Assembly: GCA_000025185.1 (NCBI GenBank)
Contig: CP001848.1
Coordinates: 5,310,001-5,342,000 of the forward strand
Source: Pirellula staleyi DSM 6068
GTDB lineage: Bacteria; Planctomycetota; Planctomycetia; Pirellulales; Pirellulaceae
DNA length: 32,000 bases
Reading direction: 5' to 3'
Program-made: the position numbers and the translations under genes
The notes under the pieces: generated by a model
Database searches by the model: none
Told to the model about the DNA's origin: nothing
The model's input: only the letters and a program-made list of their open reading frames with translations
Shown: piece after piece, positions 16,071 to 20,016 of the stretch
Layout of the letters: the number at the start of each line of letters is the position of its first letter
Numbering within the stretch: position 1 is the stretch's first letter

Positions 16071-18361
16071 AGTCCTTCTCCCATGCGATCGACGCGCACA
16101 GCGCAGTCTTTGTAGGAAGGTTGGCGCGAATGAGGATCGTAGTGAGCGAGCGTCAGTTGGTTCACGGCAGCGTAGTGCATCGGGGCAAAGATGGTCCCAG
16201 GAGCGACCGTCGTCACCACGCAAGTGCGAGCAACAATCGTTGCGCGTCTCGAGCGCACTCGTACCGCACATGCATGGGTGATCCCAAGTCGCTCGGCATC
16301 TTCGGGATGTATTTCGATGTAGAGATCAGCCGGGTAGAGCTTACGCAGGACCGCCGATTTCGAAGTGCGCGTTTGCGTATGCCACTGCGCGACACTCCCT
16401 CGTCCGGTGAGCAAAAGGAGCGGAAATTCTGCGTTCGGCTGTTCAGGCATCGGACGTGGCGCGTCGAACAACAACTTGGCGCGGCCATCGGGGTGAAAGA
16501 ACTTTCCCTCTGAAAATAAACGCCGCTGCTGACTACCGATCGGCATCGGGCGCTCACTGAATCGGCTAGCCGCTGCAGCATCGCTCTCGGTCCAAGGCCA
16601 CTGTATGCCCCCCGCCTCATCGAGATGCTGATAGCCGCGAATTCCGGTGATATCGCAAGGTCGTCCACGCGAAAGTTCTTGAAGCACTGCAAAAACCTTG
16701 GCTGGCGAATCGAGTTCTTCGAATTGCTCGAGTCCCCCCCAGTACTTGGCAAGCAAGCGGAAGATCGAGAAGTCAGCCAAGGCAGACCCGGGCGATCGCT
16801 GCACACGTTTGATACGTCCCACACGGCGCTCGGAATTGATGAACGTTCCTTCTTTCTCGCCCCAAGGTGCAGCAGGGAGAATCAGATGCGCGAGCTGCGC
16901 AGTTTCCGTGGTGGTGTAAATATCTTGCACCACGAGGAAGTCGAGCTGTGCGAGAGCCTGGCGTGTCTCGGCCTGCTCGATCCAGGAATGAGCGGTGTTA
17001 GTGGCGATGATCCAGAGCCCACGAATCTTTCCTGCACGAACTGCATCGAGAATCTCGTCGTACGCCATGCCGCTCGAGCTAGGAATACGTGCCGCGTCGA
17101 TCCCTAGGATTTTTGCCACCTCGTGACGATGATCTTCACGCGTAAAATCACGACCTCCAGCGAGTGCCGAGGTGTTGCTGAACAGCCGCGAACCCATCGC
17201 ATTGCACTGACCAGTAATCGAGTTGGCACCCGTTCCTGGCCTACCAAAGTTTCCGGTGACGAGCGCCAAGTTGATAATACTCTGCGCCGTACGCACCCCC
17301 TGGTAACTTTGATTCACTCCCATCGTCCACCAGAACGATGTGCGCTCCGACTGATGCACCAGCCTGGCAAATCCCTCAATCTGCGACAGCGTCAATCCCG
17401 TCTCTAGCTGCAACCGTTCGAGGGTAAATGCCTCGAGAAACGCTTGAAATTCGGCATATCCGGAGGTGTGCTGCTCGATGTAATCCCGATCCATCCAGCC
17501 ACGCTCGATGAGCAAACGGGTGATGCCGTAGAAGAATGTTTGATCCGACTTGGGGCGAATAGCGAGATGCATGTGAGCCGCTTGTGCCGTCTCACTTTGG
17601 CGTGGATCGATCACCACGATTTTGGCTTGGCGACGATTCGCGAGGACACGCTCCCACAAAATCGGATGGGCAATGCACGGATTAGCGCCGACAAAAACCA
17701 GCAGGTCTGATTCTTCGAAATCGGAGTAGGTGTAAGGGGGGGCATCGAACCCGAGCGATTGCTTATAAGCGGTCGCAGCAGTTGCCATGCATTGCCGTGT
17801 ATTACTATCGCCGTGCAAAAAACCGAAACCAAATTTTGCGACCGCGCCGAGTAAGAACATCTCTTCGGTCGCGATCTGTCCGGTGCTCAGGAATGCCACA
17901 CTTTCAGGGCCATACTTGGCCTGGATCGACTGAAATTGATTTCGGAAATGCTCTGCGGCTTGATGCCAATCGATCGGTCGAAACTCGCCTGTGGATTGAT
18001 CGCGAAAAAGGGGAGTCGTCGCGCGATCGGGAGCCGACAGTGGCGCGAGACCTTCCCAACCTTTCGGGCAGGCCATGCCGAGGTTCACAGGATAGGACGT
18101 ATCGGGCGAGACATTGATCGCTTCACCATCGCGTAGATGAATCTTGAGTCCACAGCCAGTGGAGCAAAAGCCGCACACCATCGTGGTGGTGGTTTCCGGG
18201 GCGAGACGTTGCGGCAAGAGGGGAAGGCCGAGTTGTTCGTTTTGGAGCGAGAGTTCGCGAGTGAGAGGGCCATCCCAAGTACGGAGGAGCGAGTTTTCAT
18301 GGCTCGCGCGCGGCGCATCGTCGAGGTGGATCATTTGCAGAAGTGGCAACAGCTTGATCAT
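16067..18361 (-). CDS. nasA: Assimilatory nitrate reductase catalytic subunit (molybdopterin oxidoreductase, NasA/NarB type)
   Basis: It has the N-terminal [4Fe-4S] motif VCGFCSTGCGLKIH...MACPKG followed by molybdopterin oxidoreductase and dinucleotide-binding regions along the full length. The start is taken at ATG 18361 because it forms ATGA with the upstream stop; ATG 18334 (MIHLDD) is also possible. No twin-arginine signal and no C-terminal 2Fe-2S or flavin domain is present. Confidence 0.88.
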   Translation of the reverse strand: MIKLLPLLQMIHLDDAPRASHENSLLRTWDGPLTRELSLQNEQLGLPLLPQRLAPETTTTMVCGFCSTGCGLKIHLRDGEAINVSPDTSYPVNLGMACPKGWEGLAPLSAPDRATTPLFRDQSTGEFRPIDWHQAAEHFRNQFQSIQAKYGPESVAFLSTGQIATEEMFLLGAVAKFGFGFLHGDSNTRQCMATAATAYKQSLGFDAPPYTYSDFEESDLLVFVGANPCIAHPILWERVLANRRQAKIVVIDPRQSETAQAAHMHLAIRPKSDQTFFYGITRLLIERGWMDRDYIEQHTSGYAEFQAFLEAFTLERLQLETGLTLSQIEGFARLVHQSERTSFWWTMGVNQSYQGVRTAQSIINLALVTGNFGRPGTGANSITGQCNAMGSRLFSNTSALAGGRDFTREDHRHEVAKILGIDAARIPSSSGMAYDEILDAVRAGKIRGLWIIATNTAHSWIEQAETRQALAQLDFLVVQDIYTTTETAQLAHLILPAAPWGEKEGTFINSERRVGRIKRVQRSPGSALADFSIFRLLAKYWGGLEQFEELDSPAKVFAVLQELSRGRPCDITGIRGYQHLDEAGGIQWPWTESDAAAASRFSERPMPIGSQQRRLFSEGKFFHPDGRAKLLFDAPRPMPEQPNAEFPLLLLTGRGSVAQWHTQTRTSKSAVLRKLYPADLYIEIHPEDAERLGITHACAVRVRSRRATIVARTCVVTTVAPGTIFAPMHYAAVNQLTLAHYDPHSRQPSYKDCAVRVDRMGEGL

Positions 18362-20016
18362 CGGTCGTCTCCCGGCATTTTGGCGGGTGTGCATGCCTGG
18401 AAGTACAGCATTCGCTCGAGCAGATTTCCGAGGAGCAGAGTAACTGCACTGACTACCGCGATTGGGAAAACGGGAGTTTGTTGCATTGCGCTTTCTTGTG
18501 AGCTGGTAGCAATCAGGAGCAGAATCATCGGCCCCAGAAATCCGCCACAAACGATCGCGCTCATTTGCATTTGAAATGCATCCGACAGTGCATTACGCAG
18601 CAGAAGTGCGGTGCGCTCGAGACTTCGCGATGGATACTGCTGTCGCCTGCGGCGCGATTCATTCAGCGAAAACGCTTGCACGGAGGCCACCATCAGCGAA
18701 GCGAGCGCCAGCAGCGCCACAAGTGTTGGCTGATTACGGCTCGCGAGAATCACCACTGTGGCGACACCAAGCCCTAAACCAAGAGTGCTTCCCAAAAATC
18801 GCGGGAAGGTGCGCGAGGCATTCCAGTAATCGCGACCTGTGGCGACGTAGATCATCGCGGAGGAAATCACACCAACGATTCCCACGCAGAGTGCCAGCGA
18901 CGAGAGGCACGAGGCAAGAGTCGTAAAGCTGAGTAGCGCGAGCAAGGCAGCAAGGCCAAGCAGACCCCCATAGGGTCCAAGTGTGACGATTTCGCGACTG
19001 AGCCAACTGGTTCGCAGTCCCATCCATGCCCGCCAAGCACCAAACGGTTTTCCGAGATGAAGAGCCGCTGCATTTCCACCCACCAGACCGGTCGCTGCAC
19101 TCACGATCAGCAGTGCGAGCGACGCACGAGCATCAATGGCTCCCGCAGCAAAAAATATTCGCTCGAGCAGCAGAGTGCCGACCGACATTTGGGTTAGCAC
19201 CAGCATCGCGACGAGTGGAAAATGGGGATGAGCAATGTGCGGAAGCGTGTCGTTGGCGGCGACGATACCCGCCAATTCTCCCTGAATATCCGCAACATTT
19301 TGCAGTTTGGCGGAGCGATAGATGGTGGTGGGAATCGTGAGCGAGGGGTCGGGGCTAGCCGCGAGAAACGTCGACGTTTGGGCGCGCTGTCGCGCGGTCT
19401 GCTGCGAAACGATCGTGATCCGAATCGCCTGATTCGGACAACCGGCGACACAAGCCGGAGCATCTCCCGCCTCGAGTCGCTGGCGGCACATATCGCACTT
19501 CCGCACAATCCCTTTCGCGGCGCTATACTGCGGCACTTCGTAGGGGCACATCAAAATGCAGTACTGACATCCAATGCATTGATCGTCGAGATGGCGCACA
19601 ATCCCCGTAAGTGGATCTTTGTCGTACGCTTGGACGGGGCATCCCTGCAAACAGCCAGGCTCGACACAGTGGTGACAAGCTGTCGTCACATACTGCTGAG
19701 GACGACTTGCATCGCTGATCCCGAGCAGCATCCCGACATGTCGCCAAGTCTCTGCTTCCTCGAGTCCATTCAGGTTATGGCAAGCGGTGACGCAAGCTTT
19801 GCATCCCGAGCAGGCATCGAGATCGACTTCAAACGCCAACTGCTCGCCAGACTTCGGCGACGACGTGGGAAGTAGCGCGCGATAATGCGCGGCATGATCC
19901 ATCGTCTGCTGCTCGTGCCAACTGGAAAACTCCCCCACAGCCGTCAGTTGCTGCTGTTCGAGGAGCAATTGCCGTAGGAAATTATCTGCAGAAACGGTGG
20001 GAATCCGCTTCTCCAT
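18358..20016 (-). CDS. Fusion protein: DmsB/NrfC-like four-cluster ferredoxin (N-terminal) plus DmsC/NrfD-like 8-TM membrane anchor (C-terminal)
   Basis: There are four Cys clusters: [37 protein letters not shown] and [21 protein letters not shown]. About eight hydrophobic helices follow, with the DmsC-type loop [24 protein letters not shown] after TM2. The start is taken at MEKRIP (20016), 13 nt after the nrtD stop. No signal or Tat motif is present. Confidence 0.8.
   Translation of the reverse strand: [552 protein letters not shown]

Follow-up and report, generated by a model that had tools for sequence, protein, structure and literature searches.

In the genome of Pirellula staleyi DSM 6068, we analysed a gene that fuses a DmsB-like ferredoxin domain with four [4Fe-4S] clusters to a DmsC-like quinol anchor and that is followed directly by a gene for a NasA-type assimilatory nitrate reductase. 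The gene lies within a window of 32,000 nucleotides (nt) of contig CP001848.1 (positions 5,310,001 to 5,342,000), and all coordinates given here are those of the window (Table 1). We propose, with a probability of about 0.65, that the two proteins constitute a cytoplasm-facing quinol:nitrate oxidoreductase for assimilation in which the fusion provides the B and C subunits combined. The nitrate reductase would then probably be fed from the respiratory quinone pool, quinol donation being deduced from sequence features. The initial annotation of the window had suggested a quinol-linked or membrane-tethered nitrate reductase of this kind, an interpretation that is supported as far as sequence analysis goes. 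The comparisons described below also support the view that the complex iron-sulfur molybdoenzyme architecture has been recruited, fused and inverted for an assimilatory nitrate reductase, and that the resulting family is widespread and misannotated.

The open reading frame (ORF) initially annotated for the fusion, without mention of a strand, is present and lies on the minus strand. Counted from the ATG at 20016, the protein has 552 amino acids (aa). There are two alternative starts: (i) a GTG at 20037, giving 559 aa, which is the start as called for a 98%-identical metagenomic protein (P0001), and (ii) an ATG at 20082, giving 574 aa and an overlap with nrtD of 52 nt. The proposed two-module polypeptide, an iron-sulfur (FeS) domain joined to a membrane anchor, was confirmed by Pfam, hhalign, AlphaFold2 and Foldseek. 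Hidden Markov models assigned both halves above the Pfam cut-offs: Fer4_11 matched residues 108-200 (E 4e-21, 75.4 bits vs a cut-off of 26.2) and DmsC (PF04976) matched residues 264-539 (E 2e-14, 53.9 bits vs a cut-off of 22.3), the latter reaching 56.4 bits on the isolated membrane domain. The four Cys motifs quoted in the initial annotation were located at C69/72/75/79, C114/117/122/126, C147/150/153/157 and C174/177/189/193, and the signature loop of the membrane domain at residues 320-343. All 16 cluster cysteines are invariant in an alignment of 39 sequences; in a larger conservation set of 88 cluster representatives (39-52% identical to the query) there is one exception, an Ala at the position of C72.

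The more specific families fit less closely. The NCBIfam model for DmsB (TIGR02951) aligned with residues 59-203 at 122.5 bits, under its equivalog cut-off of 214.1; many other B-subunit families also matched below their cut-offs, and no B-subunit equivalog in NCBIfam reached its own. NCBIfam gave no match to the isolated membrane domain, and scans of this domain and of the N-terminal extensions of the fusion and of NasA with Pfam and NCBIfam returned no additional family. The N-terminal segment of the fusion (residues 1-60), ahead of the first cluster motif, is conserved over residues 9-60 (LLxEQQxLTAVxRFxxWH...YRxLIPLxxPxxGEQYAFEV), with Q21, Y45, P50, P54 and Q59 invariant. It has no Pfam match and appears in the AlphaFold2 model as three helices at low confidence.

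Fusions of this kind are common. With the membrane half as query, we found at least 665 clusters at 50% identity (E <= 1e-10), a recurrence that places the fusion architecture far beyond chance. Among the 150 clusters listed, the majority are 520-620 aa long. We considered whether shorter matches of 260-460 aa might represent stand-alone DmsC-like anchors and rejected this, since these proteins begin inside the FeS domain or the linker, as expected of truncated fusions or mis-called starts. Proteins with this architecture are currently labelled either “DMSO (dimethyl sulfoxide) reductase anchor subunit” or “formate dehydrogenase iron-sulfur subunit”, the latter being the label at JGI.

The membrane domain had been described at the outset as an 8-helix domain of the NrfD/DmsC type. 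In agreement with this and with the PF04976 match, the AlphaFold2 model has eight long helices within residues 266-541, with a predicted local distance difference test score (pLDDT) above 90 for most of the domain. A Foldseek search of the PDB gave PsrC (2vpw_C), the anchor of polysulfide reductase with menaquinone bound, as the best fold, followed by ActC/ActF of alternative complex III. By sequence, a PDB search with the fusion returned B-subunit homologues only; no solved structure matched the membrane domain. We scored the domain as a cofactor-free anchor of eight transmembrane (TM) helices, a haem-ligand pattern having been sought in the alignment only.

When a profile of 39 homologues was compared with E. 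coli DmsC by hhalign (95.9% probability, 264 columns), H320 of the fusion aligned with His65 and E342 with Glu87. A survey of NrfD-like proteins lists Ser62, His65, Ser82 and Glu87 as quinone-site residues of DmsC and His65, Ser82, Ser85 and Glu87 as those of SoeC (PMC8076601), and mutagenesis has established that His65 and Glu87 are required for menaquinol oxidation by DmsABC (PMC8076601; PMC13059093). H320, S337, S340 and E342 of the fusion correspond to DmsC/SoeC His65, Ser82, Ser85 and Glu87, and all four are invariant in 88 of 88 representatives, as is much of the Q loop in which they lie. A membrane domain devoid of conserved quinol-site residues, which the initial annotation had named as evidence against its interpretation, was thus not what we found.

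Several features support an orientation of this module that is inverted with respect to E. coli DmsC, with the FeS domain and the putative quinol site at the cytoplasmic face. Fusion to the N-terminal end of TM1 should put the FeS domain and the TM2-TM3 Q loop on one and the same side of the membrane, which is also their arrangement in DmsABC. The reported absence of secretory (Sec) or twin-arginine translocation (Tat) signals held across the family: a Tat-like motif precedes the first Cys group in 0 of 205 members, a hydrophobic 15-mer does so in only 3 of 205, and the N-terminus of NasA has no twin-arginine motif. The loops on the FeS-domain/Q-loop side carry a mean of 12.1 Lys plus Arg residues vs 1.1 on the opposite side (39 sequences), and the corresponding numbers for the protein of the window are 15 and 1. 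In E. coli DmsC the bias is weaker and reversed, with 2 on the Q-loop side and 5 opposite, which fits its periplasmic Q loop. The missing export signals and the charge bias together argue for a cytoplasmic position of the FeS domain, of the quinol pocket and of NasA, and so support the placement of the FeS domain and the molybdenum (Mo) enzyme suggested from the start. We also considered a periplasmic orientation and rejected it: the N-terminal addition gained with a start at 20082 includes a 12-residue stretch of interest but lacks a proper hydrophobic region, and this ORF would overlap nrtD by 52 nt; no family member has a Tat-like motif, and the charge bias was decisive. The cytoplasm is also the side where NrtABCD brings in nitrate and where NirA uses nitrite.

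The gene that follows the fusion encodes a nitrate reductase catalytic subunit of the Nas/NapA type that carries Mo-bis-pyranopterin guanine dinucleotide (Mo-bisPGD). The TGA of the fusion and the ATG of the molybdoenzyme gene share the sequence ATGA (ccgATGAtc, 18361-18358), so the overlap of stop and start noted initially is real. With this overlap, the Nas/NapA-type domains and the active site described below, translational coupling of the fusion to a Nas-type nitrate reductase was confirmed. Pfam recognised Molybdop_Fe4S4, Molybdopterin and Molydop_binding domains in the protein and no C-terminal 2Fe-2S domain. Its closest solved structure is NapA of Desulfovibrio desulfuricans (E 2e-105), and its active-site sequence RQCMATA aligns with RLCMASA of that enzyme, a Cys-Met site, FdhF having RLCHAP at this place. 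In NCBIfam, it scored 465.2 against the NasA model (NF041323; cut-off 1000), 432.1 against NasC (NF047855; cut-off 1100) and 494.7 bits against the top model, Fdh-alpha (TIGR01591), also under its cut-off. Since these scores fall far under the equivalog cut-offs for NasA, NasC and Fdh-alpha, the partner represents a distinct subfamily. The roughly 35-55 aa before the Cys motif of its FS0 cluster form a conserved N-terminal extension (GPLTRxLxLxPGxFGLGxVPxRLxPDxTTT) that has no Pfam match and is common to the partners from Planctomycetota, Sorangium and other lineages (loci L003-L034). This extension is possibly a docking element for the FeS domain, or else what is left of a signal peptide or chaperone-binding peptide of an ancestor.

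The pairing of the two genes is obligatory in all the loci that we could inspect. Our genome collection contained 29 loci with a relative of the fusion, of which 26 include downstream DNA, and six further contigs were added. A nasA-type gene (57-66% identical) directly follows the fusion in all 26 collection loci with downstream DNA, and the pair is present in 32 of 32 such loci when the further contigs are counted. The occurrence of the fusion in genomes without nasA had been put forward as an observation that would speak against the initial interpretation; instead, a nasA-type gene adjoins the fusion in all 32 loci. The pair is found in five phyla, represented by Planctomycetota, Myxococcota (about 20 Sorangium genomes) and metagenome-assembled genomes (MAGs) of Pseudomonadota, Acidimicrobiales and Fibrobacterales; in a Chloroflexi MAG, the fusion is present at a contig end. 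Carriers that are cultured, and in part genetically tractable, include Sorangium cellulosum, Anatilimnocola, Adhaeretor and Bythopirellula.

The genes around the pair vary. In the window and in loci L027, L031 and L032, it is accompanied by NrtABCD, NirA and a CysJ-like protein; in Adhaeretor mobilis (L033) and in L022 by a major facilitator superfamily (MFS) transporter and a fused NirBD; in Sorangium So ce56 by NirB, probably with NirD; in Acidimicrobiales by NirB-NirD and a HEM4-type gene; and in Fibrobacterales by molybdenum cofactor (Moco) biosynthesis genes, NirD and NirB. That the fusion-nasA pair stays constant while the transporter (NrtABCD or MFS) and the nitrite reductase (NirA or NirBD) next to it change indicates an obligate enzyme-partner pair in nitrate assimilation. 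In the Fibrobacterales MAG (L036), a complete Moco cluster (moeA, moaA, moaC, mobB/mobA, moaD, moaE; 2850-7327) lies directly upstream of nirD-fusion-nasA-nirB.

From these data we infer complex formation, a quinol donor and the following bioenergetics. The C-terminal domain with the DmsC/PsrC fold would sit inverted in the cytoplasmic membrane, with the pocket of H320, S337, S340 and E342 at the cytoplasmic face. (Mena)quinol would be oxidised at this pocket on the N side, and the four [4Fe-4S] clusters of the DmsB-like domain would relay the electrons to FS0 and onward to the Mo-bisPGD of the NasA-type subunit. Docking of NasA, which is made by translational coupling, would probably involve its own conserved N-terminal extension and, in the fusion, the B-type tail. 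Nitrate imported by NrtABCD would be reduced to nitrite by NasA, and nitrite to ammonium by NirA together with the CysJ-like NAD(P)H reductase. Thermodynamically, electron transfer from menaquinol (about -74 mV) to the nitrate/nitrite couple (about +420 mV) is highly favourable. Because the protons released from quinol and those taken up in nitrate reduction would both be on the N side, the step would be electroneutral, and energy would be conserved only upstream of quinol oxidation, for example at NADH:quinone oxidoreductase. A rationale for wiring the enzyme to quinol would be that NADH electrons could first cross this proton-pumping oxidoreductase. A bolder variant, which we regard as improbable, holds that the inverted NrfD-like domain keeps the ion half-channels proposed for its family, now reversed, so that quinol protons are expelled to the periplasm and nitrate assimilation becomes electrogenic. 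If that variant were true, the module would form an energy-conserving respiratory branch in Planctomycetota, Myxococcota and other menaquinone-using phyla, a haem-free counterpart of NarGHI evolved from the Nas/Nap lineage.

Some observations weigh against a quinol-fed enzyme. The FeS domain is poorly modelled by AlphaFold2 (pLDDT <50 for residues 71-181). Ser62 of DmsC is not kept and is replaced by A317 in the fusion. The characterised ferredoxin-dependent NarB has low-potential centres, and a quinol-driven Nas would need other tuning. Finally, genes for NAD(P)H flavoproteins (CysJ-like, NirB or NirBD) adjoin the pair in most loci examined and could in principle feed the FeS domain. This last point is the basis of an unlikely alternative, in which the fusion is a tether and an electron wire: the flavoprotein encoded next to the pair would pass electrons from NAD(P)H via the four-cluster domain to NasA, and the DmsC-like domain would oxidise no quinol and only anchor the enzyme near the transporter. 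The flavoproteins in question are linked to nitrite reductases, and in the Nas systems of the Paracoccus and Klebsiella type the nitrite reductase flavoprotein feeds the nitrate reductase too. Moreover, ATGA overlaps couple all four genes concerned (fusion, nasA, nirA and the cysJ-like gene). However, a single TM helix would suffice as a tether, and the invariance of H320, S337, S340, E342 and much of the Q loop among the 88 representatives is hard to explain in a passive anchor. The flavoprotein also differs from lineage to lineage (CysJ-like without a flavodoxin domain, full CysJ, NirB or fused NirBD), while the fusion and NasA stay constant, and in locus L024 only an MFS transporter is found downstream of the pair.

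The same set of parts, a catalytic A subunit, a four-cluster B subunit and a quinol anchor C, is the architecture of respiratory complex iron-sulfur molybdoenzymes, and quinol oxidation would link the enzyme to the respiratory chain. The complex might therefore be a dissimilatory or redox-balancing quinol:nitrate reductase, a cytoplasm-facing analogue of NarGHI that serves as an electron sink at low oxygen and contributes to assimilation only secondarily. We consider this doubtful, since all contexts examined are assimilatory (an ABC or MFS nitrate importer, NirA or NirBD, regulation of the sigma-54/NtrC type, Moco and sirohaem genes) and since a step whose half-reactions both take place on the N side would by itself conserve no energy. 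The two roles are compatible, and service as an electron sink is possible as an additional function. By far the least probable reading is that the pair is a formate:quinone oxidoreductase, or one acting on some other substrate, and not a nitrate reductase at all. The slight lead of TIGR01591 over the NasA and NasC models, all below their cut-offs, and the JGI label of the fusion point that way. Against them stand the active site, which is Cys-Met as in NapA and not Cys/Sec-His as in FdhF/FdhH, the closest solved structure, which is a NapA, and the operon, which like all related loci is a nitrate/nitrite assimilation cluster. Identity as a formate dehydrogenase was ruled out by the Cys-Met site together with the operon contexts.

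The characterised assimilatory nitrate reductases (NarB/NasA, and the NasCA, NasBC and NasC-NasG-NasB systems) are soluble and take electrons from ferredoxin/flavodoxin or from an NAD(P)H flavoprotein. The enzyme of the window resembles them in the domains and clade of its catalytic subunit, in its cytoplasmic location and in an operon shared with a nitrate transporter and a sirohaem nitrite reductase. It differs from them in having a membrane-integral FeS/quinol module as its linked partner and a NasA-type subunit without the C-terminal 2Fe-2S domain and with an N-terminal extension. The initial annotation had stated that no characterised example of such wiring was known. Our search of the full-text literature, which left most subscription journals outside, agrees: it brought up no account of a Nas that is linked to DmsC/NrfD, bound to the membrane or dependent on quinol, and PMC4013037 and PMC10100899 contain none. 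A 2021 survey of fourteen kinds of NrfD-like complexes, likewise in agreement, ties none of them to nitrate assimilation and mentions no fusions (PMC8076601).

E. coli DmsABC is one of the closest known systems. It shares the B module of four [4Fe-4S] clusters, in which the four Cys groups recur, the cofactor-free anchor of eight TM helices of the DmsC family (PF04976), the conserved menaquinol-site residues and a Q loop on the side of the FeS module. In contrast to DmsABC, the B and C parts are here a single polypeptide with no Tat export, the predicted orientation is inverted and the enzyme serves assimilation, not respiration; the partner is a Cys-ligated enzyme of the Nas/NapA clade, whereas DmsA is Ser-ligated. 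Membership in the periplasmic DmsC family goes with a P-side site and Tat-exported partners, and the fusion departs from it on both counts, with a predicted N-side site and a partner without a twin-arginine motif.

A known precedent that the initial annotation did not consider is SoeABC, a complex of similar build that is proposed to face inwards. No other catalogued complex of the NrfD-like type has been assigned to the cytoplasmic side; the proposal for SoeABC includes an inverted anchor and a quinone site on the N side (PMC8076601; PMC6335251). The SoeABC complexes of Allochromatium vinosum, Aquifex aeolicus and Ruegeria pomeroyi, like the pair described here, combine A, B and C modules without export, a predicted inverted anchor and an N-side quinone site, and the invariant residues of the fusion match the published site list of SoeC (a comparison with the residue list, not with the SoeC sequence). 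Unlike the proposed enzyme, Soe oxidises sulfite and reduces quinone, so that electrons flow in the opposite direction, and its B and C subunits are separate. SoeA also belongs to another MopB clade and to dissimilatory sulfur oxidation, the partner here being of the Nas/NapA clade and serving nitrate assimilation.

With NarGHI, the pair would share the reaction of a quinol:nitrate oxidoreductase, catalytic and FeS parts at the cytoplasmic face and the lack of export. NarI, however, is a di-haem b anchor of unrelated fold with a P-side quinol site that forms an electrogenic redox loop, while the fusion has a predicted N-side site and no haems. NarG belongs to the type II enzymes and has an Asp ligand, and NarH is of far greater size (its model TIGR01660 matched the fusion at just 45.9 bits). 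The Cys-Met site is shared with NapA, and NapGH couples quinol oxidation via FeS proteins to an enzyme of the Nap/Nas clade. Nap differs in being periplasmic, Tat-exported and dissimilatory, and NapH and NapG have different folds.

If the proposal is correct, a quinone-wired Nas would be a third donor class beside ferredoxin/flavodoxin and NAD(P)H flavoproteins, and nitrogen assimilation would be tied to the redox state of the respiratory chain. The fusion would also be the second proposed inward-facing quinone module of the NrfD/DmsC type after SoeABC, relevant to how such modules switch orientation and to whether they translocate ions. The labels now in use mislead metagenomic reconstruction of DMSO, formate and nitrogen metabolism. 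Because cultured carriers exist, the hypothesis of a quinol donor can be tested directly.

Table 1. Features of the fusion, its partner and the surrounding nitrate-assimilation genes (window coordinates; residue numbers for protein features)
Feature	Position	Strand	Evidence or remark
CysJ-like NAD(P)H flavoprotein (PRK06214): RnfB-type FeS, FAD and NAD domains, without flavodoxin domain	12556..14244	-	ATGA overlap with nirA stop
NirA-family sirohaem nitrite reductase (PRK09567)	14241..16070	-	start 16070 in ATGA overlap with nasA stop
Nas/NapA-type Mo-bisPGD nitrate reductase catalytic subunit, 764 aa	16067..18361	-	Pfam, NCBIfam, structure match
N-terminal extension of NasA-type subunit, residues 1-55	18197..18361	-
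Fused DmsB-like/DmsC-like gene	18358..20016	-	ORF analysis, Pfam, AlphaFold2
4x[4Fe-4S] DmsB-like domain of fusion	residues ~60-205
Conserved B-subunit tail and linker of fusion	residues 205-265
8-TM DmsC/PsrC-fold domain of fusion	residues 266-541
Codons of H320-E342 loop with putative quinol-site residues H320, S337, S340, E342	18991..19059	-	hhalign, alignment of 88
N-terminal segment of fusion, residues 1-60	19836..20016	-
nrtD, nitrate ABC transporter ATPase (TIGR01184)	20030..21028	-	true start probably downstream of 21028
nrtC, nitrate ABC transporter ATPase	21071..22378 (long ORF)	-	homologues 294-298 aa; true start probably near 21970
nrtB, nitrate ABC transporter permease	22027..22866	-	TIGR01183, above cut-off
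nrtA, NMT1_2 periplasmic nitrate-binding protein	22866..24404 (long, TTG-initiated ORF)	-	true start probably near 24200
Candidate sigma-54 promoter TGGCACaccggTAGC, -24/-12 element	24280..24294	-	one mismatch; ~80 nt upstream of likely nrtA start, inside over-long nrtA ORF
Alginate_exp-family outer-membrane beta-barrel porin	24640..26364	+	divergent from nrtA; same place beside nitrate operon in L031, L032
NtrC-type sigma-54 response-regulator activator	26633..28240	+	divergent from nitrate operon; syntenic in L031, L032
Hybrid histidine kinase: PilJ-type (NarX-like) periplasmic sensor, receiver, Hpt	28237..30519	+	syntenic in L031, L032

The genes around the fusion are a nitrate-assimilation regulon, and the closest homologues of the region are in Pirellulales. 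On the minus strand, the gene order is nrtABCD-fusion-nasA-nirA-cysJ-like, the last four genes (fusion, nasA, nirA and cysJ-like) being joined in a chain of ATGA stop/start overlaps. The CysJ-like flavoprotein is probably the reductase for NirA and possibly a rival donor to the FeS domain of the fusion. The nirA and cysJ-like genes resemble a two-component NAD(P)H-dependent sirohaem nitrite reductase in which an RnfB-type FeS domain replaces the flavodoxin domain.

The divergent sigma-54 activator and the kinase with the PilJ domain are probably the nitrate/nitrogen-sensing regulators of the operon. The candidate promoter upstream of nrtA fits the presence of the adjacent NtrC-type activator gene, and its assignment draws on position and context only: a scan of the whole window with the sigma-54 consensus gave 45 matches vs 36 expected, which is not above chance. 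The Alginate_exp porin is a candidate for an outer-membrane nitrate/nitrite channel of planctomycetes. At the other end of the window, on the plus strand and unrelated to the fusion, a 1670-aa surface protein with 15 Big_9/cadherin-like repeats (5800-10812) is followed by a planctomycete-specific BBP7 beta-barrel porin (10983-12494).

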